From: an uncultured Verrucomicrobiae bacterium
GTDB lineage: Bacteria > Verrucomicrobiota > Verrucomicrobiia > Chthoniobacterales > JAFAMB01
DNA: 64,000 bases
Assembly: GCA_963762565.1 (NCBI GenBank)
Contig: CAVXLD010000011.1
Span: 64,001 to 128,000 of the forward strand
Reading direction: 5' to 3'
The translations under genes were made by a program, and so were the position numbers. The notes below the pieces were generated by a model that saw only the letters and a program-made list of their open reading frames with translations, did no database searches and was not told where the DNA came from. Below, in pieces: positions 668 to 60,968 of the stretch; position 1 is the stretch's first letter; the number at the start of each line of letters is the position of its first letter.

Positions 668-1562
668 TAAAATATCCGCAGCCCCGAAATCCTCCGGGGT
701 AAAATTACGCAGAACTAGTCGCGCCGTAGGCTTTGCGAAGGCGGATTACGCAGATTACGGTTTGGGGTGTAGTTGCATGACGGAAGGACGACGGTGATGG
801 GCTTCGGATCGAGCGCTTGGCTGACTTTGAGTATCGGCGAATTTCTAGGCAGAGCTTGCTTGATATACCAACAGAAATAATATATGTATCGTATAGTGGA
901 CCAGGAAACCTATCGGATCATTGGGGCAGCCATTGAAGTTCACAAAGAGCTCGGTCGGGGGTTTCTTGAACCCGTTTATCAGGAGGCTCTCGAGCTCGAG
1001 TTCAATGATCGCGGCATCCCATTTCGGCCACAGCTCGAGCTGCCGATATTTTATAAGGGCAAAAAGCTCAGAACCCACTATCGCTCCGACTTTGTCTGCT
1101 ACGAGGATATTATCGTAGAGTTAAAGGCACTGGCGCGGCTTGGCGACGGAGAGTTGGCCCAGGTACTAAATTACCTGAAGGCGTCTCGCCGGCAGCGCGC
1201 GCTATTGATCAATTTCGGATCCAAGAGTCTAGAACATGAGCGCGTTGTATTGTCACGCAGCGCCGCGTTTCAATCCGAATCCGAGGATGTCCAAAGTCGA
1301 CCCAGCGCTTGATCCGGAGCCCCATTACTCGTCGAGCCCCTCCACGTAACTACGCCTAAAACCGTAATCTGCGTAATCTGCGTAATCTGCGGATATTAAC
1401 CAAGTTGGCCCAGCGCTTGATCCGGAGCCCCATTACTCGTCGCGCCTCCCCGCGTAACTACGCCTCAAATCGTAATCTGCGAAATCCGCCTTCGCAAAGC
1501 CTACGGCGCGACTAGTTCTGCGTAATTTTACCCCGGAGGATTTCGGGGCTGCGGATATTTTA
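668..1562. mobile_element. Fold-back element with 92-bp inverted arms (9-mer ATTACGCAG based) enclosing the GxxExxY gene
   Basis: 668-759 and 1471-1562 are reverse complements with 1 mismatch. Degenerate complementarity continues inward (760-830 vs about 1291-1370 and 1409-1470). The right arm is duplicated (1301-1397 and 1409-1562). Confidence 0.7.
884..1312 (+). CDS. GxxExxY protein (PD-(D/E)xK nuclease-like family)
   Basis: IIGAAIEVHKELGRGFLEPVYQEAL (GxxExxY), YRSDFVC..IIVELKA, QVLNYLKAS...LLINFG; 142 aa. Confidence 0.92.
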   Translation: MYRIVDQETYRIIGAAIEVHKELGRGFLEPVYQEALELEFNDRGIPFRPQLELPIFYKGKKLRTHYRSDFVCYEDIIVELKALARLGDGELAQVLNYLKASRRQRALLINFGSKSLEHERVVLSRSAAFQSESEDVQSRPSA

Positions 1563-1605
1563 CCTCTTCTCGAGGCGGGAACACCACCGTCCCCTAATCT
1601 GCGGA

Positions 1606-2382
1606 TCACAGTTCCAAGCGTAGCCCATCGTAGGCCAGGGAGCACGATGTCGGGAGCGTCTTGCTAGTCTCGGCGTGACTGACATCGTGGCTAAGATGCG
1701 TGAGGAAGGCGCGCTTCGGCTTTAGCAGCGAGATCAAGCCCAGTCCTTCCGAAATACTGAGATGCGAGAAACGTGACATCTTCAGCGGAGTTCCCAGAAC
1801 TAAAACTTCGACGCCAGCCAAATCGTGTAAACCTTGATCGGAAATGATCTTGCAATCGCTGATGTAGCCGAGGATCGGCTGGCCTTGCTGGCGAATGAGA
1901 AATCCCAGGGTGTGAATCGTGCCATGTTCAACCTGGATCGGGACCACTTCGTTCTCACCCAACATAAAAGGTCCCTCGATGATGTACGGTACCGGTTGAA
2001 CATAACCTGGGAACCTGGCCTCGCCGCTAAAAGCGTATTCGAAGCTGCATGCCAGGCGGTCCATCGTTTCCCGCGACGCATAGATCGGCATCTCGTCGCC
2101 ATTGGCGCTGCTGAATCGTCTTAGATCGTCAAACCCTGAGATATGATCAGCGTGTGCGTGGGTGAAGATCGCGGCGTCCAACCGCGTGATGTTGGCCCTG
2201 AGCGCCTGCAACCGGAATTCAACCGCAGTGTCAATTACCCAAGAAGCCGTAGGAGTCTCGATATAGACGGAGGACCTCCAGCGCTGGTCTCGGCTATCCG
2301 AGGACCGGCACACCGAACAGTCACACAGTGGAACCGGTATGCCTACGGAGGTTCCTGTGCCCAAAAAAGTGGCCGTCAGCAT
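1606..2382 (-). CDS. MBL-fold metallo-hydrolase, PhnP-like phosphodiesterase
   Basis: FLGTGTSVGIP..CDCSVC, THAHADHISGFDDLR, HLS and THLSH motifs. Confidence 0.88.
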   Translation of the reverse strand: MLTATFLGTGTSVGIPVPLCDCSVCRSSDSRDQRWRSSVYIETPTASWVIDTAVEFRLQALRANITRLDAAIFTHAHADHISGFDDLRRFSSANGDEMPIYASRETMDRLACSFEYAFSGEARFPGYVQPVPYIIEGPFMLGENEVVPIQVEHGTIHTLGFLIRQQGQPILGYISDCKIISDQGLHDLAGVEVLVLGTPLKMSRFSHLSISEGLGLISLLKPKRAFLTHLSHDVSHAETSKTLPTSCSLAYDGLRLEL

Positions 2383-2422
2383 CTATTGAAAAAAGGTCGT
2401 CGGACCCTTACATAACCTGCCA

Positions 2423-4093
2423 GTGCCCGCAACGCTCCGATCACTCCGAATCCGTAACTTGGCTTTGGTTGAACAGCTCGATTGGGAGCTTGCCGCTGGG
2501 TTTAACGTGGTTACCGGGGAGACCGGCGCCGGTAAATCGATTATCATTGGAGCGCTCAAGATGATACTTGGCGAAAGGGCCGACAAATCGGTTATCCGAA
2601 CCGGGGAGGATCAATGTTCGGTGGAGGCATTGTTCAATTTACAGGACGCCGATCGCATCAATGCGTTGTTAGCTGACGAAGGGGTTGATCCGTGCGAGGA
2701 GGGCGAGCTCTTAATCCGGCGAGTATTATCCGTCAGCGGCGCGAACCGGCAATTCATCAATGGATGCCAGACGACATTAGGATTTCTCAAGGATGTGGGA
2801 GACGGTTTGGTCGATCTTCATGGACCGCATGACCATCAATCGCTCCTCTCCAAGGAGTATCAGCTGCGTTTAGTTGACGCTTTTGCCGGGAACGGAGATC
2901 TCTTTCGCTCTTATCCAGACGTATTTGGGCGCTGGCAGCAAACGCGAAAAGAACTGGACGAGTTCGAAGCCGAAACCGCGCTCAGTAACCTCGACCTTTG
3001 GCGACATCAGTTAGCGGAAATTCAGGGCGCCGGAATTCGGGCTGGGGAGCGCGCCGAGCTAGAATCCCAATATTCGATAGCGGCCAACGGGCGTCGAATC
3101 TTAGAGCTCACAGGCGCCGGGATCGCCCTCCTTTCCGAATCAGAGAACGCTCTGTTGACCCAGCTCGGAGAACTAGCCCGCCTCCTCAGGGAACTGGAAA
3201 AAATCGATGGCCAAACCCACGAATTTGTCGAAGATCACGAACGGGCCACCGTCGAGCTGGAGGAGCTCGAACGATCGTTGGTATCGTATCAGCAGCGCGT
3301 CGATTTGGACCCGGGTGCGCTTCAAATGATGGAAGAACGATTGAACCTCTTGGAAAGGCTCAGTCGCAAATACGGGCGAGACGAACCGGGCTTGCTGGAA
3401 CTTGCCGCCGAGTTGGAAACCAAGTTGAGCCGGACCGAGCATCGGGAGTCGATTTTGGAAAAATTGCGTCTGGATGCGGATAACCTTCAAAAAAAGGCGT
3501 GGTCGATTGCTCAGCAGTTGACCCGAGTCCGGCATGCCGGCGGGGTGGAACTTGCAGAAAGTATTCGTGCGCATTTGCAGGATTTAGGGTTCGCTCAGGC
3601 CAGCTTTGACATTGTGTGGGAAACGCTGGCGCAACCGAATCGAACCGGATTTGATCAGGTCGAATTTCTCTTTTCTCCTAACCCGGGCGAACCTTTGAAA
3701 CCGTTACGGGCAATTGCTTCCAGCGGAGAAATCTCTCGGGTCATGCTGGCCATCAAGACGGCGTTAGCTCAACAGGACTTGATCGGCTTGTTGGTCTTTG
3801 ATGAGATTGACGCCAATGTTGGAGGCGAGATCGCTTCTGCAGTCGGCAAGAAGATGCAAACGCTCGGCGAAAATCGTCAGGTGGTTGCGATTACCCATAT
3901 GCCTCAGGTAGCAGCCGGCGCTGGCACTCATTTCTTCGTGACCAAGGAAGTTATCGACGGCCGGACCCGCACCTCACTCCAGGAGGTACGCGGCGACCAA
4001 CGACTCCAGGAGTTAGCCCGGATGCTAGGGGGCAGGACGTCATCGGCGCTGGAACATGCGCGCACACTGTTACGCGCCGGAGGTGAGAAGTGA
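2423..4093 (+). CDS. recN: DNA repair protein RecN
   Basis: Walker A TGETGAGKS, DLHGPHDHQSLL, ASSGEISRVMLA, FDEIDANVGG, ITHMPQVAA, ELARMLGG. Confidence 0.96.
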   Translation: MPATLRSLRIRNLALVEQLDWELAAGFNVVTGETGAGKSIIIGALKMILGERADKSVIRTGEDQCSVEALFNLQDADRINALLADEGVDPCEEGELLIRRVLSVSGANRQFINGCQTTLGFLKDVGDGLVDLHGPHDHQSLLSKEYQLRLVDAFAGNGDLFRSYPDVFGRWQQTRKELDEFEAETALSNLDLWRHQLAEIQGAGIRAGERAELESQYSIAANGRRILELTGAGIALLSESENALLTQLGELARLLRELEKIDGQTHEFVEDHERATVELEELERSLVSYQQRVDLDPGALQMMEERLNLLERLSRKYGRDEPGLLELAAELETKLSRTEHRESILEKLRLDADNLQKKAWSIAQQLTRVRHAGGVELAESIRAHLQDLGFAQASFDIVWETLAQPNRTGFDQVEFLFSPNPGEPLKPLRAIASSGEISRVMLAIKTALAQQDLIGLLVFDEIDANVGGEIASAVGKKMQTLGENRQVVAITHMPQVAAGAGTHFFVTKEVIDGRTRTSLQEVRGDQRLQELARMLGGRTSSALEHARTLLRAGGEK

Positions 4094-4436
4094 GAAGTGA
4101 TTGGTGATTGGTGATTGGTGATTGGTGATTGGTGATTGGTGATTGGTGATTGGTGATTGGTGATCGGTGATCGGTAGGGCGAGGCTCCGGAGAGACCCAG
4201 CGATTAATCAAGGGAAAATTGACGACACGCGACCTATCATCGACCAAGGCCAAAAGACGCGCCGAGCCGTGGCCCACGATAGACCACGGCTCGGCGCGCT
4301 TTTAGATTTGGCTTGTTAATTGGTTAGGTTTACGCAGCTAAGCCTTGTTGACCCGCTCGCTCTTTCGGGAGCCTCGCCCTACCAGGCATCAGCCCCCACC
4401 AATCACCTCTCACCAATCAATTCTCACTTCTCACCT
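4082..4436. repeat. Heptamer-armed fold-back element with a nested GTAG-REP pair
   Basis: Left arm GTGAGAA x2 then about 9 x GTGATTG (4082-4173; contains the recN stop). Right arm CACCAAT/CTCTCAC/TTCTCAC units at 4397-4436. Inside: GTAGGGCGAGGCTCC (4174) ... GGAGCCTCGCCCTAC (4382). Confidence 0.85.
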
Positions 4437-4441
4437 TCGGT

Positions 4442-5524: not shown

Positions 5525-5531
5525 TCAAACG

Positions 5532-5780
5532 GTGAGAAGTGAGAGGTGAGAAGTGATAGGTGGAAGATGCGTGCTCGCGCAGGCGGATGGCCGTTGGTTC
5601 GACTCTGCTGCTCGCGTCCGTGTCCAGTCTGATGCCATCCACGGCGTCGGGCTCGGAAAGAGATGACATCTCACGGACCGGGCATGACTTGACCCTGTTG
5701 GCATCCAAAGGCCAGATGTCATGCTGCCGCGAGAGCCTTAACCACCTCTCACCTTTCACCAATCACCTCTCACTTCTCAC
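5532..5780. repeat. Heptamer-armed fold-back element between gmhA and the prepilin peptidase
   Basis: GTGAGAAGTGAGAGGTG (5532-5548) is the exact reverse complement of 5764-5780. One arm contains the gmhA stop; the other ends 7 nt before the next ATG. Confidence 0.85.
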
Positions 5781-6342
5781 TGGCTTTCTGCAGCGCCGGC
5801 TCTATCAGCTCACAGATGATGTGAATGACCACTTTGTGGGCTTCTTGGATGCGAGCCGTAACCTGGTGGGGCACGATCAACTCCAAAGAAGCGAGCCCTT
5901 TGCACACTCCACCGTCCCGGCCTAGAAGGGCGATCGATTCGATCTTAAGCTCGCGGGCAACATCAAGGACGCGCACGATGTCACGGGATTGTCCGCTGGT
6001 GGAGAGCGCAAACAAAACATCTCCGGGCCGCCCAAATGCCACTAGCTGACGGGCAAACACTTCCTCGAATGAATAATCGTTTCCGATCGCGGTGATTAAC
6101 CCTCCATCGTTGGTCAGGCTGAAGCCCGGAAACGGTTTGCGATCACCGAGGAATCGGCAGGCTAGCTCAGCGGTGAAATGGGAGACATCGGTAGCGCTGC
6201 CACCGTTGCCACAACCCAGTACCCGATGGCCAGTTAAGAGCGCATTCTCGATCAGTTCGGCGGCGGCCCGGATTTTGTTCTCCAAAGGAACCAAAAGACC
6301 AATCGCGTTTATCGCGTCGTCGATACTTTGGCGAACGGACAT
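5770..6342 (-). CDS. gmhA: D-sedoheptulose-7-phosphate isomerase (SIS domain)
   Basis: GCGNGGSATD, TAIGNDYSFEEVFARQ, LSTSGQS, TARIQEAH. ATG at 6342 (MSVRQ) preferred over the upstream alternative start at 6378. Confidence 0.92.
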   Translation of the reverse strand: MSVRQSIDDAINAIGLLVPLENKIRAAAELIENALLTGHRVLGCGNGGSATDVSHFTAELACRFLGDRKPFPGFSLTNDGGLITAIGNDYSFEEVFARQLVAFGRPGDVLFALSTSGQSRDIVRVLDVARELKIESIALLGRDGGVCKGLASLELIVPHQVTARIQEAHKVVIHIICELIEPALQKASEK

Positions 6343-6718: not shown

Positions 6719-6747
6719 CGACCAATAGCCGATAGCAGGTGAGCGTG

Positions 6748-6912
6748 ACGGCGAATGGGCGAGACGGCGAAACGGCGAATGGGCGATAAAAGGCGCGACA
6801 GAACCGGGGTTATCGATCCTGCGAGTTACTCAGGCAGTCAGATCCGCGCCTACAGATCGCCCCTTCGCCCCTTCGCCCTTTCGCCAATACGCCGATTCGC
6901 CCACTCGCCATT
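6748..6912. repeat. 8-mer-armed fold-back element upstream of lhr
   Basis: ACGGCGAA/TGGGCGA units at 6748-6787 face TTCGCCC/TCGCCA units at 6858-6912. Confidence 0.7.
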
Positions 6913-6944
6913 CCCCCCAGGCTAGGCTAGCTTTCTGGTAGGCC

Positions 6945-9900
6945 ATGCAGTCATTTCAGTTCCATCCGGCGGTTGCGACGTGGTTCGAACAGACCTTCGG
7001 TACACCAACTGAGCCGCAGCAACTCGGATGGCCAGCGATTCAGTCTGGCGCCGATACCTTGGTGGCTGCGCCCACTGGTTCCGGTAAAACACTGGCTGCT
7101 TTCTTGGCTTCCCTTGATCAGCTTTTTCAAGCGGGGCTTGATGGAACTCTCGCCGATGAGACCCGGGTCCTTTATGTTTCGCCTCTCAAGGCGCTCAGCA
7201 ACGACATTCACAAGAATTTGGACCAACCGTTAACCGGTATCCGCGCTGCGTTGCGAGCGAGCTGCAACCGCGACATAGACATCCGGGCCGAAGTCAGGAC
7301 TGGGGATACACCGGCGGCCAAACGCCAGGCGATGGTTCGCAAACCGCCCCACATTCTGGTTACCACCCCGAGTCTCTCTATCTGCTGTTAACGTCCTTGT
7401 CTGGTCGGAAGCTTTTGCGAACCGTTCGAACCCTGATCCTGGATGAGATTCACGCCGTCGTAAGTAGTCGTCGGGGATCGCATCTGGCGCTTAGCGTGGA
7501 GCGATTGGCTGCCCTGACGAACCATCCTTTGCAGCGGATCGGTTTGTCCGCCACTCAAAAGCCGATGGAAGAAGTAGCGCGTTTTCTAGTCGGTACCCGC
7601 AATCTAGATGGCGCCGGTAACGCTCGTTGCACAATTATCGATTGCGGACACAGCCGGAAGCTGGACGTAGCCATCGAGTTACCGGGCTCACCACTGGATG
7701 CTGTCATGTCGACCGAGGTCTGGGCCGAGGTGTACAACCGTTTGGCTGATTTGGTCGAGGCTCACCGGACGACGCTAGTATTCGTTAACACTCGGCGCTT
7801 GGCCGAACGCGTCACGCATCATCTTTGCGAACGATTAGGCAAAGACAAAGTGACGTCCCATCACGGCAGCCTTTCCGCGAAGCTGCGTTTGGATGCCGAG
7901 AATCGATTGAAGCGTGGCGAATTGAAGGCGCTCGTTGCCACAGCGTCACTGGAGCTGGGGATCGACATCGGCTCAATCGATTTGGTTTGTCAGTTAGGTC
8001 CGACCCGCTCAATCGCCACACTCCTGCAACGAGTAGGCCGAGCCGAACATCGGCGTGGCGGCTTGCCCAAAGGCCGATTGTTTCCGCTGAGCCGAGATGA
8101 ACTGGTCGAGGGCGTGGCCACCCTGCGCAGCATCCGCAACGGCGAGCTCGACCTATTGGAAATGCCGCAGAAACCGCTCGACCTGTTGTCCCAACAGATT
8201 GTGGCATGCGCCGCTTGTGAAGATCTGGACGAGAGCGCCCTTTTCGAGCTGATGCGGTCCGCTTATCCGTATCGCAATCTAACCCGGAAGGAGTTTGATG
8301 ATGTGGTGCGGATGCTGACCGAAGGATTCAGTACGCGGCGTGGCAGGCGTTCCGCGTTGATCCATCATGACGGGGTTAACCATCGGATTAGGGCCCGCCG
8401 CGGCGCCAGGCTTCTAGCGCTGACCTCCGGCGGTGCAATCCCGGATAATGCCGATTATCGCGTCGTCGTCGAGCCCAGCGAAACCTTTGTCGGAACCGTC
8501 AATGAAGATTTTGCCGTGGAAAGTATGGCCGGCGATATTTTCCAGCTCGGCAATGCTTCTTGGCGAATCTTGGGGATTAACTCCGGAACTGTCCGAGTGG
8601 AGGATGCGCATGGACAACCACCCGGCATTCCCTTTTGGTTAGGCGAAGCGCCAAGCCGCACAGCAGAACTCTCCCGGTCTGTCTCTAAATTTCGCGAAGA
8701 CGTTGAGGAACAGTTGCGCCCGGGAGGGATCGCGTCCTCGCGATCCGATGCCCCCGGAGCCGAGGGTGTAATTAGAGTCTCCAAGGATATCGTTCGGCCA
8801 GACAAGGTATTCGCGGCGCGCGAGGACGCGCGCCCTCCCGGGTCATCGAACGATCCCATAACGAACGAACCGGAGTTTCTCCCTACCGCCTCAGATCTCA
8901 TCTCGAGCGTTGCCTCTTGGATCGAACGCGAGACTGGGCTTAGCGAAGCCGGTGCTTCTCAGCTGGCCGATTATTTCAGCGCGGTATACCGGACCCTGGG
9001 CGTCATTCCGTCTCAGAACAAACTCGTGCTAGAACGGTTCTTTGATGAGTCCGGCGGGATGCAATTGGTGATCCATTCGCCGTTCGGTAACCGGTTGAAT
9101 CGGGCCTGGGGCTTGGCATTACGCAAGCGGTTTTGCCGGTCCTTTAACTTCGAGTTGCAAGCCGCGGCTACGGATGACGCCATCGTGCTCTCGTTAGGCA
9201 CGCAGCATTCATTTCCGCTGGATGATGTTTTTCATTATCTGAACAACAAAACGGTTCGCGACATTCTGATCCAGGCGCTGCTTGATGCTCCTATGTTCGG
9301 AATTCGTTGGCGATGGAATGCCGGACGTTCACTAGCTTTACCTCGGCAGCGTGCAGGTCGTCGGGTTCCGGCCCCTTTGCAGCGGATGGAGTCCGAAAAC
9401 CTTTTGGCCGCGATCTTCCCGGACCAGCTGGCTTGTCTCGAGAATATTGCGGGTGATCGGGAAATACCGGAGCACCCGTTAGTTCAGCAGACCATCGACG
9501 ATTGTCTGGTTGAAGCGATGGATATTGACGGCTTGATCCGCTTGCTCGACCGGATCGAGAAAGGGGAGATCGAATGTATCGCTCGGGATTTACCGGAACC
9601 GTCGCCGTTGGCCCATGAGATCTTGAATGCTAAGCCATACGCGTTTCTGGACAACGCTCCGCTCGAAGAACGGCGTACTCAAGCCGTCTATACTCGGCGA
9701 GCAGGTGAGCCATTGGCGGAAGGTGGCCTTGGATTACTTGATGCAAACGCGATCGAGAAAGTTTGCGCGGAAGCGTGGCCACAAGCGACCAGCGCTGACG
9801 AGCTACATGAAACGTTGCTCTTGGTGGGCGCCTTGACCGATGACGAGGTCCGGACGGTCGGGTCTGATCCATTTGAATGGCTACAGGAGTTGCAGAGTGA

Positions 9901-11591
9901 TAAGCGAGCCGGGCGTTTGCAGGATCCGCCTCGTGGAACGCGCCTCGTTTGCGAGGCCGATCGGTCGGAGCCTCTTGGGCTCCGTTCTGGATAGCGGCGG
10001 AGAGAGTTCCGATGTTGAAGGCGGTCTATCCCGACCTCAGGGTTGAGCCTGCTCTCGTTCCTCCCCAAAGCGAGAGTGAACGGCAGTGGCAGCGGGCTGA
10101 CGCGGTGCGAGAACTTGTGCGCGGCCGCTTGGAAGTAGCCGGTCCAACTACAGCGACCAAGCTGGCAAGTCTGTTTCAGCTACCGGTCAACGAGATCGAT
10201 ACTGCATTGATTGCGCTGGAAGGTGAGGGATTCGTCCTAAGGGGCAAATTTCATCCAGGTTCTGCCTCGCTGGAATGGTGTGATCGCAGGCTGTTGGCGC
10301 GGATTCATCGTTTAACGTTGAACCGTCTCCGGGCGGAGATTCAGCCTGTTTCAATTGCTGAATTCCAACGGTTCTTATTGGCTTGGCAACGCGTCGGGAT
10401 TGAGCACCGGGCAGAAGGAGTCGAAGGGGTACGAGCGGTTTTGGAGCTGCTAGATGGATATGAGCTACCGGCGGCAGCCTGGGAGCCGGAAGTATTAGTC
10501 CTTCGCGTCAAAGAATATCAACCGGCTTGGCTCGACCAGCTCTGTTTCACCGGTCGCCTCGGTTGGGGCCGGCTAACTGCGCCGCAAAAGACCAATGGCC
10601 GGCCGCCGCTGCCTGTGCGTTCCAGTCCGATTTCTTTATTCTCACGCGAGAATCTTGGACATTGGCTAGCGCTTTCGGCTCCTCCCGACGAGATCGAATT
10701 TTCTCCAGATACAACCCGGGCCCTGGAGGCTCTGGCTCAAGCAGGTGCTCTATTTTTTGGCGAGCTCGCGCAAAAAACCGGTCTATTGCCATCCCGGCTA
10801 GAGAGAGCTTTGGCCGAACTCGTCGCTCAGGGATTGGTTACCGCCGACAGTTTCGAAGGGTTGAGAGCTTTGTTGGTTCCCGAAGAAAAGCGTGCGCCGT
10901 TTGCCTCGGCTGAACGGCGCCGCCACCATAAGCCAGTCACGAGCCTGGAGTTTGCTGGCCGTTGGTCTTTGCTGAGGAACGCCGGGAGCGCCGTGAACGA
11001 TTTTGCGAGTTCCATCGCAACTGGAGCCAGGAATCGAACGGCGACCGATGACCCAGCGCTTACAGACTCCGTTCCCGGCGCTCTCGGCGCTCACGGCGTT
11101 AGAAGACGTGAAGAGGCAGTTGAAGCCTTTGCTCGGGTATTGCTCCGTCGTTACGGCGTCGTATTTCGCCGGGTCTTGGAACAAGAATCGTTGCGAGTCA
11201 CCTGGCTCGAGTTAGTCCGGATCTATCGAACATTAGAAGCGCGCGGCGAGATCCGTGGCGGCCATTTCGTCGCTGGCGTCAGCGGCGAACAATACGCGTT
11301 ACCGGAAGCTGTTGGATTGTTACGTTCGATTCGGAAAACAGCGCCCAAAGGTGATCTTATCCCGATCAGCGCAGCCGATCCCTTGAATCTGACGGGAGTT
11401 CTCACGCCCGGATTACGGGTCGCTGCTATCAGTGCCCATCGCGTTCTTCTACGTGATGGCGTACCTACCGTCGCTCTCAAAGCCGGACAGCTTATCCCTC
11501 TAACTCAGGCGTAGAGGTGGTCGATCAGGCAATCGAACGCGCTCTGCGCGTCGGCAGTATGCCCGCTGTCCTCAGGCCTTACTACGCTTAG
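6945..11591 (+). CDS. lhr: Lhr-family DEAD/DEAH helicase, split by about 3 frameshifts (about 7370, 9950-9980, 11510)
   Basis: [22 protein letters not shown], a TTPESL motif broken by a missing base at about 7370, [68 protein letters not shown]. The true C-terminus is probably ...[20 protein letters not shown] ending at 11591. Confidence 0.88.
8719..8842. repeat. GGAG-REP doublet (family A) in frame inside lhr
   Basis: GGAGGGATCGCGTCCTCGCGATCC ... GGCGCGCGAGGACGCGCGCCCTCC. Related copies at 21711, 33885, 35291, 47073 and 48758. Confidence 0.85.
10978..11100. repeat. 9-mer-armed fold-back element (123 bp) in frame inside lhr
   Basis: AACGCCGGGAGCGCCGTGAAC ... GTTCCCGGCGCTCTCGGCGCTCACGGCGTT; lies between the conserved GRWSLL and [10 protein letters not shown] motifs. 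Confidence 0.7.
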
Positions 11592-11681
11592 AGGTATAGC
11601 GTCCACTCAAGCGCTTTTGGCGGTCATGCTTCGCGCCAAGTCGCGTTACAAAGTTTCTGGGTATTTATAACATTTCTGGTA

Positions 11682-11709
11682 TTTACACTGCCTTAGATTT
11701 CGATATAAT
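11682..11709 (+). promoter_or_regulatory. Putative sigma70 promoter of the phosphoesterase gene
   Basis: TTTACA-16 nt-TATAAT, 11 nt before ATG 11721. A TTTCTGG(G)TATTTA direct repeat lies at about 11654-11686. Confidence 0.5.
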
Positions 11710-11720
11710 AAAAAAACTTA

Positions 11721-13233
11721 ATGCCGAATTATTTCAAGGCATTAGCAGCTGGCGTCGTGCGATTTACAGCTTTGTTTCTCCTACGGTCTGCGCGTTTGCC
11801 CAGGTTAGCACGCCGATCACGAACTTCATTTTTATCATTCAAGAGAACCATTCATTCGACAACTATTTCGGCACCTTTCCGAATGCGAACGGCATTCCAC
11901 CTAACACGGCTCTCCCCGAATATCCGGGCGGGCCGCCGGTCCAGACACCATTTCTTCTCACCACGCCCTACACGGCCGGTGACCTTTCCCATTCGTGGAG
12001 TAGTGTTGTACTTGCCTACGATAACGGCTCACCTGAACCGTTTCCTCTGGGCGGAGTGGCCAACCGTTGTCCATTGACTACGGCGCAGAGTATTCCTGTT
12101 CCCACTCCTAACCCGGCTTTGGTTTCAACTCGTTCCCAAAACCTCACCGACCCCCACCCCTTCAGTCAAACACCTCCAAGAATTACCATCCGGTGAGGTT
12201 CGCTCTCCTAACGGCTTTGCTGACGACGAGGATGATGAGGCTCCTCGCATTGAAGAATAAAACGAAAAAATCCTAATGGCCGCACCTACGCCTTCGGGTA
12301 CACCCAACTGGAAAAAGCGGCCAGCATATGTCAAGAACACTCTCGGGTACTACGATGCTTCTATCATTCCAAAACTACTGGCAGTACGCGAGCACGTTTA
12401 CTTTGTGCGATGCATTCTTTTCGTCATTGTCCGGCCCAAGCCAGCCGAATCATTTGTACGTCGTGGCGGCGCAGTCGGGTGGTCTCGTACAGAACATTTT
12501 AGGCCCCCAAAATGAAGCCATTTACAGCTTTAATAGCATCATTGAGTTGCTAGGAGGAGCGAACATTAGTCTGACTTACTATGTGAGTGTTAACAACCCG
12601 ACGAGCGAGACCCTTTGGAATCCGCTCCCGGCTTCGAAAATTACGCGGGGCCCGGTGCGGTGACACCGCATCTTGCGCAAACCACTCAGTTTTTCGATGA
12701 TTTAGCTAATGGCACGCTGCCGCAAGTCTGTTGGCTGATACCCGGTAGAGGCGTAAGCGAACATCCGCCCGCCGACGTCCAGAACGGGATGTGGTACGTA
12801 ACAAACCTGGTTAACGCCGTAATGCAGAGCCAGTATTGGAACACTTGCGTGATCATCATCTTTTGGGATGACTACGGAGGCTTCTACGATCACGTTTCCC
12901 CGCCTCAGGTCGATACGTATGGATATGGTTTTCGAGTTCCTGCGATCGTCATCTCGCCGTATTCTCAAAGCGGTGTTGTAGTCCACACCATCTACGATGA
13001 GACGTCTCCTTTAGCACTGTTGGAGCAAGTTTTTGGGTTGCCTCCGCTTACCAATCGCGACGGACAAGCCAACGCGATGCTGGTATTGTTTCGACTTCTC
13101 ACAGACACCGTTACCTCCGCTGGTGATCCCAATGCCAACGCCGACCCCAACGCCAACGCCAACCACCAACGCTGACACCGACCCTAACGCCGACACCGAC
13201 CCCAACACCGACCCGACTCCAACACCAAGCTAG
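11721..13233 (+). pseudogene. Phospholipase C / phosphoesterase (AcpA-like), multiply frameshifted
   Basis: Motifs spread across frames: [80 protein letters not shown], and a PT-repeat tail. About 5 frameshifts and an apparent in-frame TAA at about 12258. Confidence 0.8.
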
Positions 13234-13602
13234 CGTCCTGCTCGTGTACGGCGCCTAATCTCGTTCAGAGATTCAGCCAGCCCCGATCAGTTGGCGGTCC
13301 TAGAACCCAAAGAACCGCCACCAAGGCCGCTGTTGTTGGTCTCATCGGATTCTTTTACGTGACGGCATCCCCACTGCCGCCTTGCGAGGCGGGCGATTGA
13401 TCCCGTTGGATCAAGGTGCGACGGCGCTGGATCAAACTTTAGAACGCGGGTTACGGATTGGCAGCATGCCAGCAGTATTGCGGCCCTATTACACGTAGCA
13501 GGTTAACAAACCGTGGTAGCAAAACGCGCCTAAACCAATTGAGCTGTTCTTTGCTTAAAGATCTCTTAATATCTCTTAGCTCTTCTCCATAAAGCCTCCC
13601 TC

Positions 13603-14674
13603 ATGAGAAAAATCAGGAATTCGGTACTGCGGGTACTGGCTTTTATGGCATTCGTTGCCAGTGCCACTTTAACAGCGCCCGGTGTAGCCCAAGCATCGCT
13701 CGAAAACGAATCGGTATCGCAAAGTGGCCTTCCCGAAAACAAGGTGATCGCGACTCTTTCAGTCGGTGTCTTCCCTTTTAGCCTAGCGATCATTCCGAAA
13801 GGAGATGAAGTTTACGTCCCCAATTCGCACACTCACACGGTGTCGGTAATACAAACTTCGACTAACACCGTAATCGCTACGATTCCAGTCGGGAACACCC
13901 CAACCCACGTTGCGATTAGTCCAAACGGGAAGCTCGCTTACGTCAGCAATACCGGTAGCCATTCCGTCTCCGTCATTTCCACTGAAAAATAAGACGGTGC
14001 TCTACAAGTTCGGCGTAATTTCGTACTTTCCGGAGGGTCTCGCGGTTAGTCCTGATGGTAAACAGCTTTATGTCGCCAGCGCTGGCTACCCGTACTATGG
14101 CGGCTTTATCTCAGTAATCGATACTAATAATTTGGTGCTTTTAAATGTATTCAAACCGGGTGGTGATCCCGAAGAGGTAAGGTTCTCCCCGGATGGGGAA
14201 TACCTTTACGCGCTTAACAAACGTGGGATCGGCCACGGTTATATTTGTACGATCGACACCGCGTCGCAGACGATAGTACAGACGGGAATAGGGTCGACAG
14301 ATTTTACTGGTCTACCCACTGGCCTCGCTATTAGCCCTGACGGAGCGACGCTCTATGCGTCGAACCGGGTGACTTTTGTTTTCGCGTTTGACGCAGCTGA
14401 TGGTTCGCTCGAAAACACAATCAAAATTATCTCTAACGGCGAGAAAGAACGGCAAGTGTATGAGCCAGTGGTTACCCCGAACGGTAAATTTTTGTACGTA
14501 CCGGATCCGTATCGGGGTACTGTCACGATGGTTGATACCGCGACTCGCAAAGTCGTTGGCTCCCCAATCAAAGTGGGCGCATTTCCGATGTATATGGCAG
14601 TAACGCCTGACGGTAATTATCTCTACGTTAGCAACGAAGCCGACAACACCGTTTCTGTCGTCGATATCAGATAG
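13603..14674 (+). CDS. Secreted YVTN/YncE-type beta-propeller protein, frameshifted at about 13985
   Basis: Signal peptide and repeated VIATIPVG..P..VAISPNGK.AYVSN...SVSVI blades across ORFs 13603-13992 and 13910-14674. The shift falls in an A-run (GAAAAATAAG). Confidence 0.85.
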
Positions 14675-15300
14675 GGACTAGAACCCAAAGAAACGCCACC
14701 AAGGCCGCCGCGGCTGTTGTTTGTTCTTACTGATAAGGCGGCCCGAATTGCCGCTGGGTTGCTCACCTGATAAACTCGGTTTCGCGGAGTCGTCCCAAAT
14801 ACAGTAACGGGGGTCCCGACAGAGACGGCGTTGAAAAATGCGATCGCTTTTTCTTCCGGCATCCGGACACAACCATGTGATGCGGGGTATCCGGGCAGAT
14901 AACCTGCATGCATGCCGATCCCAGGTGCAAAATTCATGTAGTACCGCATCGGCGCATTCACGAACCGGGTTCCATAGGTGACCGGCATATCAACGTCGGC
15001 GTCTGCGACGACGGTGCGCCCATAATAGTCCACAATTTTGCCGTAAATGCTGGAGGTATGGTTCAAGTCTTTGTCGGTGATAGTGAATGTCCCGCTCGGC
15101 GTTAGATGACCGTATCGGCCAGTGCTGATGGGCGACTCCATGATTGCCCGATCCTCATACAAGAGATAGGCCTTCTGATCACCAAGGTCGATTTGCACCG
15201 AATATTGGGCACGAGCTGTACCCATTAACAGCGCCGTGAATGCCGTGATCGCCGTGATCGCCGGGAATGTGAAGCCCAAACTAAGCCCGAAGATCTTCAT
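14623..15300 (-). CDS. L,D-transpeptidase (YkuD/ErfK family)
   Basis: Signal peptide, SPISTGR, TPSGTF, GIGMHAGYLPGYPASHGCVRMP (HxxxxxxxxxSHGC). The true end may be ...RPWWRFFGF* at 14678 through a frameshift. Confidence 0.9.
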   Translation of the reverse strand: MKIFGLSLGFTFPAITAITAFTALLMGTARAQYSVQIDLGDQKAYLLYEDRAIMESPISTGRYGHLTPSGTFTITDKDLNHTSSIYGKIVDYYGRTVVADADVDMPVTYGTRFVNAPMRYYMNFAPGIGMHAGYLPGYPASHGCVRMPEEKAIAFFNAVSVGTPVTVFGTTPRNRVYQVSNPAAIRAALSVRTNNSRGGLGGVSLGSSPYLISTTETVLSASLLT

Positions 15301-16328: not shown

Positions 16329-16337
16329 GTCGGCTAT

Positions 16338-16458: not shown

Positions 16459-16464
16459 AAGTCG

Positions 16465-25631: not shown

Positions 25632-25635
25632 CACC

Positions 25636-51105: not shown

Positions 51106-51168
51106 CCTCCATACGACCATAGAGCGAAACACGCGCAGAATCGGGCAACGCCAGCAAAAACAGGAACG

Positions 51169-51304
51169 ATCCGCAGATTAACGTAGATTACGCTTGGCGG
51201 CGGCTCAACAACGCGAGGTAAGGGAGAACGGGTCGCCTACGAAAGCTTTGTTTCTCGCCCCGGCCGTATCAAAGCTCAAAACGAAATCTGCGTAGTCTGC
51301 GGAT
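51169..51304. repeat. Empty 9-mer-armed element (ATCCGCAGATT family)
   Basis: ATCCGCAGATTAACGTAGATT ... AATCTGCGTAGTCTGCGGAT. Confidence 0.75.
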
Positions 51305-51453
51305 GATCCCCTCTGCAGCGTTGCTCGGCCTAATGAGATGCTTCGCTCTATTGTGTTGCCCGTCCGCACTTTATCATCTGCGTTCATCTGCGGTTCGTTT
51401 TCCGTTTTCGCGTCCGGCTTTTCACCAATCACCAATCACCAATCACCTGCCTT

Positions 51454-52377
51454 TCACTTCTCTCCCTTACCCAGCACCTTGGAGAGTGCGAGCTCGTTGA
51501 TCGCGACGGGAGTCTGTTGCAACAGCTTGCCCAGGTAAGCCTGGCTGTTCGACTGCGTCTTCTCTTTCCGGAGCTGCTGCGCCAATGCCGCCCGGACCTC
51601 CTCCAGAGTCGGCGTATACGCTTCCTTGATGTCCAGCACCTTGATAATATGCCAACCATCCTCGAGGCGAAGTGCTTCCGAGACAGTATTTTTGCTAAGC
51701 GAACCAAGCTGTGATCGCACTTCAGGTTGGATCTGGTTCTCGGTCAACCAACCGATTTCGCCTCCGCGAGCGGCGCTTTCCGATTCCTCACTATTGGCTT
51801 TGGCGATCGCGCCAAAATCTGCGCCCGATTGGTGGAGACTCTTTTTTATAGTCTCCAGCTTCGCTTGAACTTTATCGGCGGTGGCTTTATCAGCGTTCTT
51901 CGGAAGCGCTAGGAAAATCTGCGCGAGCCGAATTTGTTTGGGAACCAGTAATTGCGTTTTTCTGGCTTCATAAGCGGCTTGCAGCTCGGTTTCGCTCGGA
52001 TAACTATCGGCCGGCTTGGAAACGGATTGCAAGTAGCTCTCGACCACCGCGTTGTCGCGTGCTCGTTGAATCAGCGTGGCGACGGCGGGCTCTTGATCCC
52101 AGTGCTTGGCTAAAGCTTCCTTCAAAACGACTCGTCGCATCAGGAGCGTCCGGACTGTCTGGCTCAGCAAACTCGGATCGCGCGCCAGAGCGGCCTGGTC
52201 CCGCGCATCCAAACTTTCAATCGCGCTACGAATCTCATCCAGCTTTACCTCCGCATCTCCGACTCGGGCGATCACGGTGGAATCCGAATTTCCTGGGTCA
52301 GCGGCGGCTGCAGCATAAGCTCTTTGGCTAACCGCTACCCAACTTGCAGCGAATAAACAGGAGACAAAAAATCTCAC
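51454..52377 (-). CDS. PpiC-type peptidyl-prolyl isomerase
   Basis: IRLAQIFL, GADFGAIAKANSE..SAARGGEIGW, GWHIIKV. GTG at 52377 gives the signal peptide MRFFVSCLFAASWVAVSQRAYA; ATG 52521 is the alternative. Confidence 0.85.
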   Translation of the reverse strand: MRFFVSCLFAASWVAVSQRAYAAAAADPGNSDSTVIARVGDAEVKLDEIRSAIESLDARDQAALARDPSLLSQTVRTLLMRRVVLKEALAKHWDQEPAVATLIQRARDNAVVESYLQSVSKPADSYPSETELQAAYEARKTQLLVPKQIRLAQIFLALPKNADKATADKVQAKLETIKKSLHQSGADFGAIAKANSEESESAARGGEIGWLTENQIQPEVRSQLGSLSKNTVSEALRLEDGWHIIKVLDIKEAYTPTLEEVRAALAQQLRKEKTQSNSQAYLGKLLQQTPVAINELALSKVLGKGEK

Positions 52378-52540
52378 GCAAAGACGCAAAGACGCAAAGC
52401 TTCTAGTAAAGACGGTCGCCACGCCTGGACTTTTTCTTGTGGGCACCGAGAAGGTCTGCCATTCAGGGCGGTTGGCGTTTCTCGAAAAGTCACAGTGGCG
52501 TTCACAAATATTAGTCTTCATCTTTGCGTCTTTGCGTGAG
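52373..52540. repeat. 9-mer-armed (GACGCAAAG) fold-back element overlapping the PPIase start
   Basis: 52373-52392 and 52521-52540 form a perfect 20-bp inverted repeat. Confidence 0.85.
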
Positions 52541-52560
52541 TTTTTATCTGTGTCTTCGGG

Positions 52561-56576: not shown

Positions 56577-56587
56577 AGGATTAGAAT

Positions 56588-56757
<170 letters not shown>

Positions 56758-56766
56758 TTTTGATTG

Positions 56767-58783: not shown

Positions 58784-58839
58784 CATCTAACCCGCAATCG
58801 ACCTGTTGCTTTCTCTCTCATGTATTTTTTGCGGGTTAG

Positions 58840-60618
58840 TTAGAAGTCGGCCCATAGTCGGAAAATAAACCGCACCTCATGCGCAGTAGTGTCCTGAGAG
58901 CTGATCATCGGGACAGCGATATCCAGTGAACCGTTGAAATGCTGATACAGCTGGATGCGGCTCCCGAATCCCCAGCTAGCCAGGTCAAAAACATCGTTCT
59001 GCTCCGGGAGCGGTTCTCGTATCGTTAAGGTGCCGGCATCTAGAAACGCGTAAAAACGCCACTCATCTTCTTTCTTATGCATCCAGCTCAGTAATGATGG
59101 GCTGCGCAATTCAACGGTCCCGAAAATGCCGTTATCACCTAGTTCCTCGGCTTCGTAATAACCGCGTACGGTTCCCAAGCCGCCGCCACCGATCTGCTCA
59201 CTATTCACCAATGGCTGATCGGCAACCTGGCCTTGTACCTTGGCATAGACCTGCATGCCTCCCGGCAAATCATGGGTATGAGATAAATCGCCCCGGAAGT
59301 AGATGAAGTTACCGCTGGCCTTAAACCGGGTGTTATCGAACTCGTTATCTTTGCTGCCCAATCCTCGGATACCGAAAGTAACCCCAGCGTTCAGATCGGT
59401 TTCCGAACCTTTCGGAACCCATGTCGCGGTATAAACCGCACTAACCGGATAGTAAGTGATCGGTGAGGTAAGCGCTCCAGTAGTGAGACCGACGCGTTGA
59501 TCGAAATGCTTCCAATCGAAACCGGCGCTGATCGACTCATAGAAATCTTTCCCGGCCGGCAACGTGAAAATACCGCGCATCCCGAAGATCGAACCCTTTC
59601 CGGCAACCGCGATGCTACCCAGCGTCGATACGTCGCTATTTTGCTTGGTCCCTTGCAGGAGGAGGCTGAATCCCTCGAATCCAGGGAAACGCGCTAAATA
59701 ATAACCGGAGAAAACTTCAGCGTCGCTCAGGTTTTCAGGTGCGATTTGAAAACTGAAACCGGCCGAATGTCCGAGTTGCCAGAAATTGTTATAACTAATT
59801 GAGCCATTGAGCCGGAGGGACGTCGTGTCGGGGCTGTTACGATCATTCAGCTCCAAACTCCCGTGCAACGGAAGGGTGTCTTTAACGTTAAGATCGATGT
59901 CCACCGTTCCCGGTTCCACTCCGGCGCGCAAAGTCGGTGTGATCCGTCGATCCGGTAATTGGTTAAGAGCCACAATGTCACGGGTCACATCGTTGAAGTT
60001 GGGAACGGTCCCTTCGGCGAGAGAGGGCGCCTGTTTCCGGATCTGGCTCAACGAAAAGTAACGCGAACCGAGGATGCGAAGCCGGCCAACCTTGCCTTCG
60101 ATCACTTGTAAGACCACCACACCATTCCGAACCTGCTGGGGCGGGATCTGTACGGCAACGGTCTGATATCCCTTATCCTGATAAGCCTTCTCCAGCGCAG
60201 CTCGTGCATGTTCTACATCCTCAGTAGTCCGGCCTGGACCGAGGTAAGGATAAACGGCCTCCTCTACCTCCAACGGAGTCAGCTTGTGCGACCCTTCAAC
60301 CCGATACTCTTGAATATAGATCTGCCGTTCATCTTGGCCTGAGCTCGTCGAATGGGCCTGCCCTGAGCCTGTCGAAGGAGCCTGCCCTGAGCTTGTCGAA
60401 GGGGTCTGCGCGTTCAATGACAATGGCGCTGTCGTTAAGACCGCCCAGAACCAATAAATGATAACAAGGAATCGCCGGCTTCCTGCCCAAATCGTGATGA
60501 CATCAAACACCGTCGCCGCAGCGACGGTGTGATCGCGCGCCCAATATTCTTTTGGGCTGATCCTTTCCGCTGTCATTTGTAGCAGTTGCCATCTTGGCAC
60601 TTCTGAATTTGCCACCAC
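58840..60618 (-). CDS. ShlB/FhaC/HecB (TpsB, Omp85) transporter; start uncertain
   Basis: POTRA motifs YRVEG..L...EVEEAVYPYLGP, LEKAYQDKGY, VIEGKVG; NSEQIGGGGLGTVRGY (VRGY motif); C-terminal RLWADF. Confidence 0.9.
   Translation of the reverse strand: MVANSEVPRWQLLQMTAERISPKEYWARDHTVAAATVFDVITIWAGSRRFLVIIYWFWAVLTTAPLSLNAQTPSTSSGQAPSTGSGQAHSTSSGQDERQIYIQEYRVEGSHKLTPLEVEEAVYPYLGPGRTTEDVEHARAALEKAYQDKGYQTVAVQIPPQQVRNGVVVLQVIEGKVGRLRILGSRYFSLSQIRKQAPSLAEGTVPNFNDVTRDIVALNQLPDRRITPTLRAGVEPGTVDIDLNVKDTLPLHGSLELNDRNSPDTTSLRLNGSISYNNFWQLGHSAGFSFQIAPENLSDAEVFSGYYLARFPGFEGFSLLLQGTKQNSDVSTLGSIAVAGKGSIFGMRGIFTLPAGKDFYESISAGFDWKHFDQRVGLTTGALTSPITYYPVSAVYTATWVPKGSETDLNAGVTFGIRGLGSKDNEFDNTRFKASGNFIYFRGDLSHTHDLPGGMQVYAKVQGQVADQPLVNSEQIGGGGLGTVRGYYEAEELGDNGIFGTVELRSPSLLSWMHKKEDEWRFYAFLDAGTLTIREPLPEQNDVFDLASWGFGSRIQLYQHFNGSLDIAVPMISSQDTTAHEVRFIFRLWADF
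60333..60404. repeat. 3 x 24-bp CCTGAGC(C/T)TGTCGAAGG palindromic repeat, in frame in tpsB
   Basis: Encodes PSTSSGQA-PSTGSGQA-HSTSSGQD just after the signal peptide. Confidence 0.8.
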
Positions 60619-60729
60619 ACCGAACGACTTTTCACGGCAGTTCAGATCTCGGGTAGAGGTTCAGTTTCCTAGCACTCATTTGCCCGGTCAAACAAGTGCT
60701 CGATTGTTACGATCCTGCGACAATCGGGT

Positions 60730-60968
60730 GTGAAAGGTGAGAGGTGAGAGGTGATTGCTGGGCGCGTGGTGAGTTGAGGAGATTGCTGAGCGCTGATGAC
60801 GTCCCAATCTAGTAGGAGTACGAGGACTAGAGTCTTCGGCCGAACAGGACTTAGGCGACTCGATGGACTTACGAATGAGTTCCCACAATTCGCATGATTT
60901 TCAGAGATCCCCCCTGTGATCAGGCCGGCGCTAGCGCTCCCTGACTTGCTCACCAATCACTAATCACC
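60730..60968. repeat. Heptamer-armed element between the FHA-like gene and tpsB
   Basis: GTGAAAGGTGAGAGGTGAGAGGTGATTG (60730-60757) faces CTCACCAATCACTAATCACC (60949-60968, contains the FHA stop). Confidence 0.7.

Follow-up and report, generated by a model that had tools for sequence, protein, structure and literature searches.

Inverted arms of tandem short words around two families of small genes in a Verrucomicrobiae genome: probable selfish cassettes resembling 23S rRNA intervening sequences

We analysed a 64-kb stretch of the genome of an uncultured Verrucomicrobiae bacterium, referred to as the window (G000:C11:64001-128000; the source genome G000 is a 6.12-Mb assembly of 15 contigs). 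It contains two small genes, each enclosed by inverted arms which are made of tandemly repeated short words, and a series of arms of the same design which enclose no gene. Such a structure is termed a cassette here: a small gene or its remnant lies between two terminal inverted repeats (TIRs), each consisting of about three tandem short words. An earlier note on this DNA had proposed two selfish families with gene-carrying and gene-less members. Members of both kinds were seen, but they fall into at least 35 unit families and not into two.

The first gene-bearing cassette (665–1565) is double-layered. Its outer arms (665–774 and 1456–1565) are 110 nt long and 95% complementary, and the RNA folds end to end with z = -22.8 (30 dinucleotide shuffles per locus were used for this and all other z values). 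Within it lies an inner cassette (741–1396), whose arms at 741–779 and 1343–1381 consist of ATTACGCAG/CGCAGATTA units as revealed by the inverted-repeat scan and by Tandem Repeats Finder (TRF), which reports an array of period 9 with 3.2 copies at 100% for 1363–1391. The inner cassette ends with ...CTGCGGATATT, as does the gene-less family; the same ends were found in the congener G004 and in 21 gene-less copies. Sequence reading and self-matches revealed that 1409–1486 is a tandem copy of about 1301–1381 and includes the last codons of the gene; gene end and right arm are duplicated in this way (1301–1396 and 1409–1486), so that the cassette has two right ends. A small symmetric CCCCGAAATCCTCCGGGG-type hairpin module is present in both arms (about 682–699 and 1531–1548). 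G004 has this module as well (L091), in a single arm of a CGCAGATTA cassette that carries no gene, at the site corresponding to 32325 of the window.

The gene of this cassette (884–1312, forward strand, 142 residues) is antisense relative to both flanking genes. Its identification as a GxxExxY gene is confirmed by TIGR04256 (138.5 bits, cut-off 35) and PF13366, PDDEXK_3 (132.6 bits, cut-off 22). In an alignment of 28 sequences, G24, G26, E29, Y32, E39, Y57, D69, E79, K81, Q93, Y97, N110 and F111 are invariant, and these residues include the D...ExK core of PD-(D/E)xK nucleases. The AlphaFold2 model (pLDDT 82.6) retrieved lambda exonuclease, Cas4 and RecE-type nucleases as loose matches (TM ~0.5, best E = 5.7e-4), and a sequence search of the PDB matched no solved structure. 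GxxExxY, the first cargo class, is predicted to be a protein of about 120 residues with a PD-(D/E)xK nuclease fold and an intact D...ExK site. The whole genome has 14 TIGR04256 matches at 12 loci, of which nine are intact and three fragmented or split.

The second gene-bearing cassette (41880–42428) has arms of 28 nt with 89% complementarity (41880–41907 and 42401–42428), in which TRF detects the heptamers GTGAGAA/GTGAGAG/GTGATTG. Its RNA fold pairs end to end (z = -5.8), with the TIR stem surrounding the open reading frame (ORF) at 41914–42399 on the reverse strand. The product was correctly recognized as a four-helix-bundle (4HB) protein: it matches TIGR02436 with 85.8 bits (cut-off 24) and PF05635 with 91.2 bits (cut-off 33.8), and its PDB relatives are 2rld and 2gsc (XCC0516), five chains each as deposited. 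The suggested resemblance to the Avd protein of diversity-generating retroelements holds only in the sense of a distant relationship (NF033474, 22.8 bits, below the cut-off of 80). The likely start codon is the ATG at 42381, and the heptamer array of the 5′ arm reaches up to it. By these profile matches, the second cargo class is assigned to the S23p/23S intervening sequence (IVS) family, and its arms use 7-nt units of arbitrary sequence. Nine TIGR02436 matches correspond to eight loci in the genome, five intact and three partial or split. The sole 23S rRNA gene (C12:223485-226335) has 2,851 nt for 2,925 model positions and carries no insert; none of the nine TIGR02436 matches is on C12, the contig with the only large-subunit rRNA match. 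A gene for RNase III is present (C1:1331812-1332465).

Tandem arrays are abundant throughout the window. TRF reported 79 rows, 53 of them with a period of 6–10, compared with 9–18 rows and 4–13 with such a period in three approximately dinucleotide-preserving shuffles. The inverted-repeat scan yielded 59 arm pairs within 1.2 kb, and the majority of the 25 longest are at loci listed in the earlier note. Each of the 16 arm pairs listed there was found again, at most a few bases from the stated position, with inverted arms of tandem 6–10-nt units; an end-to-end RNA fold was obtained for 15 of them (z -3.4 to -22.8). Fourteen are clear cases, but the pair at 60730/60968 is weak (z = -0.7) and that at 10978/11100 lies inside the Lhr helicase gene. 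Units match within a pair as claimed, except that the arrays at 60730/60968 are merely partly complementary. Four of the seven loci described as 9-mers are such, while 35244/35449 has 10-nt units and 52373/52540 and 56588/56757 have 8-nt units. No Rfam family matched the 64-kb window at the gathering score.

Both arm types occur without a gene in the window, as had been stated, but the supposedly empty interiors are not empty and measure 14 to about 250 nt. The CGCAGATTA arms of the GxxExxY type recur at 32328/32479 (cassette 32325–32482, 94-nt interior, from the inverted-repeat scan) and at 51169/51304 (51165–51310, 96-nt interior, z = -3.4). GTGAGAA-type arms recur at 4082/4436 in a heptamer cassette with GTGAGAA followed by 11 GTGATTG units (4077–4440; TRF and inverted repeats; z = -13.9), which encloses a REPIN-like element bounded by GGTAGGGCGAGGCTCC, and at 5532/5780 (5528–5784; arms 38 nt, 82%; z = -9.2). 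Further heptamer cassettes without a gene are of the AGGAGCT type (17300–17510; 38 nt, 97%; z = -10.2), which overlaps the adjoining stop and start codons, of the GGCGTTT type, in which a 9-mer array is nested at 25461–25501 (25400–25635; TRF; z = -3.8), and of the GTGATTG/GTGATTA type (26440–26655; 44 nt, 91%; z = -7.7). The gene-less 8-mer cassettes are 6740–6920 (ACGGCGAA / TCGCCCAT; TRF; z = -4.6), 52366–52547 (ACGCAAAG; 25 nt, 96%; z = -7.7), which fills its spacer and has an A-run before and a T-run after it, and 56583–56762 (CACAGAGA; TRF and inverted repeats; z = -4.5), whose unit is the one flanking GxxExxY genes across phyla. A hexamer cassette (TCGTCC/TCGTGC, 16330–16465, z = -6.3) spans an entire spacer, and a 10-mer cassette (CGAATGGACA, 35236–35457; TRF and inverted repeats; z = -7.5) contains a nested GC-rich palindrome. 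The weak member at 60726–60972 combines GTGAGAG and TCACCAA arrays detected by TRF.

Both gene families are enriched inside inverted arrays. Arms were detected by a gapless scan with a simple period estimator, using an arm score of at least 14 as threshold. In the genome itself, such inverted arms were found at 11 of 12 GxxExxY and five of eight 4HB loci, compared with seven of 600 random 350-nt segments. TRF placed all 12 GxxExxY loci between inverted arrays of 8–10-nt units, nine of the loci having period 9, and found inverted arrays at seven of the eight 4HB loci (period 7 in five, period 8 in one, hexamer-like in one); the remaining 4HB locus, a weak and partial match, has no arms. Of 151 genomes of the phylum, the own one and 150 others, 74 have GxxExxY and 98 have 4HB. 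Analysis of the 30 top-scoring loci of each family (29 for GxxExxY after omission of the own-genome locus) revealed inverted arms at 21 of 29 and 16 of 30 loci, respectively, but at none of 106 shifted control positions. Tandem arms of the phylum have period 9 (nine loci), 8 (five), 10 (one) or 7 (one) for GxxExxY, and period 7 (14) or 6 (one) for 4HB.

The type of arm is paired with the cargo, in line with the earlier proposal. Among loci with tandem arms, period 7 was found for 0/12 GxxExxY and 5/7 4HB loci in the own genome (Fisher test against other periods, p = 0.0018), for 1/16 and 14/15 in the phylum (p = 8.6e-7), and for 1/40 and 6/7 in other phyla (p = 4.5e-6); these values overstate the significance, because related genomes are not independent. 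Protein identity is correlated with arm similarity among 29 GxxExxY cassettes (Mantel r = 0.246, reached by 18 of 2,000 permutations), and for pairs with less than 70% identity r is 0.208. In a genome of a different genus (G012), a GxxExxY gene with 71% DNA identity to the window copy adjoins a CACAGATTACGCAGATTA array.

To extend the comparison beyond the phylum, GxxExxY loci were collected from one genome per species with an alignment of eight sequences from one clade (‘GPGLLES’) as query. The sample consists of this clade alone, to which the window copy does not belong, and comprises the best 79 of at least 589 loci, with 56–68% identity to the query. Among these 79 loci more than 15 phyla are represented; the record labels include Acidobacteriota, Planctomycetota, several Proteobacteria, Chloroflexota, Bacteroidota, Cyanobacteria, Omnitrophota, Chlamydiae, Actinobacteria and a Methanothrix metagenome-assembled genome, among others. 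Inverted arms were detected at 53 of the 73 loci with sufficient flank, and 40 of the 53 have tandem arms, with period 8 in 18 cases, 9 in 17, 10 in two, 11 in two and 7 in one. In nearly all cases the words are CACAGAG, CACGAAG, CACGGAG or CGCAGAG, each followed by a free base or two, and an arm usually has three of them. The GxxExxY arms use units of 8–10 nt with the conserved core CRCRRAG. Forty-two loci, in which both motifs could be anchored, have the ends A|CC[AG]C[AG][AG]AG ... CT[CT][CT]G[CT]GG|T; the base just outside the cassette is A in 38 of 42 on the left and T in 41 of 42 on the right. The gene with the Methanothrix label (L123) is 62% identical to the bacterial query and belongs to an archaeal bin. 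Arms were not detected around it, and its presence could reflect transfer or a binning error.

For 4HB, five of the genomes with GxxExxY loci were searched. Eight loci were found, from an acidobacterium, a planctomycete, a cyanobacterium and an Anaerolineales bin. The estimator assigned period 7 to the arms of six, and a seventh was recognized by eye; the heptamer is different each time. Altogether, 4HB arms of period 7 were seen in five phyla. As words and ends are conserved for GxxExxY while the heptamers of 4HB all differ, the rule is sharper than ‘9 versus 7’: GxxExxY arms conserve word and ends, 4HB arms conserve the period only.

On the scale of the genome, TRF detected 4,479 array loci, with period 7 (1,542), 9 (819) and 8 (637) being prominent. 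Where adjacent arrays have related units, 473 pairs are inverted and 27 direct. An inverted partner within 1.5 kb (score at least 14) exists for 711 of 3,852 short arrays, a direct partner for 132. The cassettes have a fixed polarity. Among 508 cassettes from 35 unit families, each family having four or more members, 502 have the left-arm word on the same strand. The left arm is purine-rich in 468 and pyrimidine-rich in 79 of 551 compact cassettes.

These counts bear on one alternative, namely that the arrays are ordinary simple repeats derived from slippage and lie near small genes by chance. Slippage accounts for changes by whole units, such as the three to eight units per arm at 16330 in different congeners, and heptamer repeats are known to be over-represented in bacteria (PMC4692102). 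It does not account for the conservation of unit sequence, for the preponderance of inverted over direct pairs, for the fixed polarity, or for termini which are conserved across phyla; nor does it explain the enrichment at two gene families over random segments and the pairing of period and cargo with p down to 1e-6. The counts of pairs, polarity, enrichment and pairing already contradict this explanation, and we consider it hardly tenable.

According to a crude, ORF-based gene model, 535 of the 551 compact cassettes are outside called ORFs. By the same model they are present in 13.5% of the spacers between co-directional genes, in 16.4% of those between convergent and in 11.7% of those between divergent genes, and they are not biased towards gene 3′ ends. 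A main role as terminators was rejected, since the frequency is similar in the three spacer classes. Among 161 wide arm pairs, phmmer revealed only GxxExxY (eight) and 4HB (four) as recurrent cargo. Thirty-nine of the 161 have reversed polarity and represent arms of two neighbouring cassettes spanning a host gene; inspection of the remaining wide pairs by eye revealed no recurring gene family. Arms of correct polarity surround a Sir2-like deacetylase and a beta-carbonic anhydrase (G000 C7:422580-423731; C1:882949-883936), which may be captured genes or may each lie between two half cassettes.

The gene-less cassettes are related to gene-bearing ones to differing degrees. For 257 of the 551 compact gene-less cassettes, this genome has a gene-bearing cassette whose unit differs by no more than one mismatch. 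The CGCAGATTA family has ends reading ATCCGCAGATTAC..., has three words per arm, and has an inner stem extension in common with the gene-bearing copy. Its gene-less interior measures 86–98 nt in 21 of 23 copies. The mean pairwise identity of the 21 interiors is 0.397 compared with 0.289–0.329 for shuffles, which indicates weak homology over the whole length, found within this family only. It follows that the whole element was once copied, and that the interior has since been nearly randomized while the arms have not. The double unit of this family occurs in 188, 91, 70, 38, 31 and 6 copies in six congeners, in 0–18 copies in other genera of the family and in 0–2 copies in other families of the order; a reversed-pattern control gave no copies. 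Many interiors contain nested palindromic elements of other families. A conserved core seemingly shared by ‘empty’ cassettes (225 of 529 in one BLAST cluster) was rejected, as it consists of nested elements and leftover arm units. The AATGACA family (for example C1:289302 and C1:789325) consists of minimal hairpins with four to five heptamers per arm and a G+C-rich loop of 14–42 nt, which differs at every locus; no gene-bearing copy was found in this genome.

Orthologous sites were compared in four congeners (G002, G003, G004 and G005), whose flanking genes are about 75–85% identical. The GxxExxY site of G004 is occupied by a 9-mer cassette that lacks the gene, shares its ends with the window copy and has an interior of about 95 nt, and G002, G003 and G005 have a different palindromic element, the terminal repeat of which flanks a RAYT-like Y1 gene elsewhere in G000 (C4:78656). 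G003 has an intact 4HB cassette, as does G005 up to the contig end. In G002 the arms are kept and 172 nt are deleted inside the ORF, and in G004 the cassette is replaced, with a related right arm next to an unrelated interior. Presence/absence polymorphism, as predicted, was found in gene-bearing, gene-less and decaying forms. Enrichment, pairing and polymorphism, whose absence the earlier note had named as decisive against its proposal, were all observed.

Among the gene-less cassettes, the hexamer cassette 16330 is kept in all four congeners with arms at 0.88–0.90 and the interior at 0.46–0.54 identity. Cassette 17300 is retained in G004 (arms 0.92, interior 0.58) and replaced in G002 and G005, 32325 has arms at 0.98 in G003 and 0.95 in G005 and is not present in G002, 56583 is retained in G004 (arms 0.89, interior 0.55), and at 6740 other elements are found instead in G004 and G002. 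Over six cassette-genome pairs, retained orthologous cassettes show identities of 0.88–0.98 for the arms, 0.77–0.85 for the mostly coding flanks and 0.46–0.65 for the interiors; replaced cassettes have about 0.4–0.5 throughout. At the 16330 site of G003 (L080), a 4-kb insertion with a large ORF, found in this genome only, lies beside the retained hexamer cassette.

The conservation of arms above coding flanks fits the main counter-reading to selfish cassettes, in which the hairpins serve the host as RNase III sites, stabilizers of mRNA ends, terminators or arrays for a global regulator, and the small genes are merely lodged in them. All five congeners retain some cassettes at the same site, stop and start codons are directly adjoined by cassettes, and that in the Lhr gene is read through in all five genomes. 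Repeats of comparable design are known from other bacteria. They comprise GGGAATC heptamer arrays in Xanthomonas, with 70–75 convergent pairs, stable positions and a discussion of quadruplexes (Rehm et al., PMC4692102), GGGGAYT repeats in Nostoc (PMC4692102) and paired tandem heptamers in Geobacter metallireducens, taken as putative global regulator sites (PMC2700814). Like the cassettes, these heptamers are intergenic, often form convergent inverted pairs, lie near gene ends and are positionally stable. The accessible text of these papers links the repeats to no gene, whereas here the same design brackets 4HB genes. A host function does not readily explain that GxxExxY arm words and ends recur with the gene in more than 15 phyla, which is unexpected for a host-specific signal, or that at least 35 word families serve the same kind of place. 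Further, the elements found in an orthologous spacer are unrelated from one congener to another, cassettes are about as frequent in divergent as in convergent or co-directional spacers, and the CGCAGATTA family varies from 6 to 188 copies within the genus. We therefore regard this reading as improbable.

The closest parallel to the 4HB cassette is the 23S rRNA IVS of Coxiella burnetii. This element measures 428 nt and has an inverted-repeat stem of 28 bp. Two to three tandem GACAGAT heptamers, in strain-variable number, precede its S23p ORF, the first repeat is where RNase III cuts, and a 176-bp deletion affects the ORF in one strain (PMC4990558). The small 4HB ORF, the terminal inverted repeats with a long stem, the variable number of tandem heptamers directly before the start codon, and the decay of the ORF by an internal deletion of about 175 nt are common to both, as is a sporadic distribution, which points to horizontal spread; the Coxiella IVS is the 4HB cassette of this genome in an rRNA setting. 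IVS of this kind are also known from Leptospira, as cited in the same paper (PMC4990558). There are also differences. No cassette copy of this genome is in rRNA, and it has in addition a second cargo, GxxExxY, with its own arm type; there are also hundreds of gene-less copies. Excision by RNase III was shown for the IVS and would apply to the present cassettes by analogy. It is probable that the cassettes are built like ORF-bearing 23S rRNA IVS but reside between, and occasionally inside, ordinary genes.

A second parallel concerns REP-associated tyrosine transposases (RAYTs) and their dispersed palindromes (REPINs). In both systems a single small gene is flanked by an inverted repeat which is dispersed without the gene between other genes, repeat and protein co-vary, and target-site duplications are lacking. 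The cassettes differ by their cargo, GxxExxY or 4HB instead of a Y1 (HUH) transposase, and by arms of tandem words, with a period tied to the cargo family, in place of a single REP hairpin. The genome itself contains classical RAYT-type elements with non-tandem arms in the same spacers as the cassettes. Twelve Y1_Tnp (IS200/RAYT-type) matches were found in G000, among them C7:408772, C3:712536, C3:55497, C9:102253, C1:119032 and C4:78656. Five small Y1 genes lie in composite inverted arms of 21–52 nt with no TRF tandem array nearby; TRF rows were present beside two of ten Y1_Tnp matches examined and absent from the other eight, with no matching tandem array at any of them. MITEs (miniature inverted-repeat transposable elements) and their parent insertion sequences resemble the cassettes by TIRs, an excess of gene-less over gene-bearing copies, nesting and lineage-specific copy number. 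Unlike MITEs, the cassettes of the window contain no transposase detectable by profile searches, 35 of 42 cross-phylum loci have no target-site duplication, and the arms are conserved while interiors barely are. Foldback transposons of Drosophila have long inverted arms in which short repeats follow one another in tandem, and a coding loop may or may not lie between the arms; they are eukaryotic, much larger and without sequence relation, so that the likeness is one of design only. Our literature search, with subscription journals not covered, found no description of such gene-bearing cassettes outside rRNA. One published passage that mentions GxxExxY deals with a cas4 call adjacent to a reverse transcriptase associated with CRISPR and does not concern these cassettes.

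Conserved words, ends shared across phyla, fixed polarity, cargo-specific arms, states with and without the gene, and decay indicate that inheritance and spread occur at the level of the element; the same evidence argues against local slippage or a host signal. Together with the RAYT/REPIN parallel, this leads us to favour, as probable, selfish cassettes which have word-built terminal repeats cognate to their own protein and gene-less derivatives, combining an IVS-like design with RAYT/REPIN-like logic. We infer that the protein reads the arms. Copies would move either as whole cassettes, which insert and leave no duplication, or because the gene homes into cognate empty hairpins. The words would be iterated recognition sites of the cassette's own protein, which would act in cis and in trans. 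Gene-bearing copies may lose the gene through internal deletion, and the gene-less hairpins may persist and multiply as non-autonomous partners, as in RAYT/REPIN or transposon/MITE pairs. Protein recognition, gene conversion between copies or the two together could keep the arms of a family alike, and slippage would let the unit number drift. Cassettes would be tolerated in transcripts because their arms fold into long stems which RNase III could cleave, as in the Coxiella IVS (PMC4990558). By this analogy, and given the RNase III gene of the genome, the stems may loop the insert out of host transcripts as the earlier note had suggested.

Several observations weigh against selfish cassettes. 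For 294 of the 551 compact gene-less cassettes, the genome has no gene-bearing copy with a matching unit, and the largest families of this kind are AATGACA (46) and AGGAGCT (34). Gene-less interiors are mostly unrelated, 266 of 529 being singletons in BLAST clustering. Arm detection failed at 8/29 GxxExxY and 14/30 4HB loci of the phylum and at 20/73 cross-phylum GxxExxY loci, a direct match with a score of at least 14 was present at 18 of the latter 73, and both samples consist of best-scoring loci only. Some arm pairs of correct polarity enclose ordinary genes. Clean empty sites, for which the earlier note had proposed to look, were not found, as each orthologous spacer examined in G002–G005 held another element; a target-site duplication was absent from 35 of the 42 cross-phylum loci. 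No movement was caught among these sites, the distance of the congeners (about 80% identity) being too large to resolve single insertion events. Several cassettes are kept at one site throughout the genus with arms more conserved than coding flanks, which a host function would also explain. To our knowledge, 4HB proteins have no catalytic activity, and mobilization of DNA by 4HB alone is therefore excluded.

In an alternative model, only the gene moves. The hairpins would then be older residents; the nuclease would cut a cognate gene-less hairpin, and repair from a gene-bearing copy by arm homology would install the gene, always within one word type. The gene-bearing cassette of G000 and the gene-less one of G004 with the same ends at one orthologous site fit this model, as do the strict pairing of arm and cargo, the lack of a target-site duplication at 35 of 42 loci, the nuclease site intact in 28 of 28 sequences, and arms which are alike around divergent interiors, as repeated conversion would yield. 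The duplicated gene end and right arm of the window cassette might be left by an aborted repair. Homing alone does not explain how gene-less hairpins arrive at new sites or in new phyla, the arm homology is merely about 25–45 nt, and 4HB has no nuclease. The co-occurrence of gene and arms across phyla with conserved ends implies that the whole cassette was transferred at least between genomes. Homing without transposition is rather doubtful, and selfish cassettes remain the favoured interpretation.

A wider view can be put forward only tentatively, as possible but short of probable. The cassettes may represent a class of mobile DNA across phyla, in which a PD-(D/E)xK nuclease or a 4HB protein recognizes the words of its own arms and copies itself or homes among cognate hairpins. 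The 23S IVS would be a special case lodged in rRNA, and the excess of heptamers in bacteria (cyanobacteria, Xanthomonas, Geobacter) would be debris of such elements. If true, this would provide function and context for two very large unexplained families of small proteins, PF13366/TIGR04256 and PF05635/TIGR02436, and would explain the origin of ORF-bearing 23S rRNA intervening sequences. It would also unify scattered reports on paired heptamers, which invoke quadruplexes or regulator sites, and add a third system of protein plus palindrome beside RAYT/REPIN. Since the arms consist of three conserved words and have sharp ends, a protein of 120 residues and short oligonucleotides would allow a direct test of the central claim. 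As the elements fill a large share of intergenic DNA in genomes of this kind, and even a helicase linker, they matter for annotation and for the reading of operons.

The helicase linker is the palindrome with 9-mer arms at 10970–11105 (TRF; z = -4.4). It lies in frame in the ORF 9949–11514, between the WH3/HTH and WH4 Pfam domains of Lhr, and is read through as a variable linker; it was found in all four congeners compared. Over the five genomes of the genus the arms are conserved and the middle differs in length and sequence. This palindrome appears to be a cassette turned protein linker. Lhr is represented by two overlapping ORFs, 7397–9994 (865 residues) and 9949–11514 (521 residues), which may reflect a frameshift, a sequencing error or two genes.

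Three other regions of the window were noted. A stand-alone REPIN-like element at 15388–15612, revealed by its inverted repeats, has a copy nested in the cassette 4077–4440 and is not a tandem-unit cassette. At 36332–36497, TRF and the congener alignment revealed a mosaic of unpaired arrays of the ATAGCCA, AATGACA and ACCAATC types. The three word families are on one strand, directly upstream of a gene at 36500, and the mosaic aligns through with its position kept in all four congeners. Finally, the window has about 3.1 kb with five small ORFs at 11585–14677, where G002, G004 and G005 have 109–381 nt and the G003 contig ends before the site; this region is a strain-specific insertion or island.

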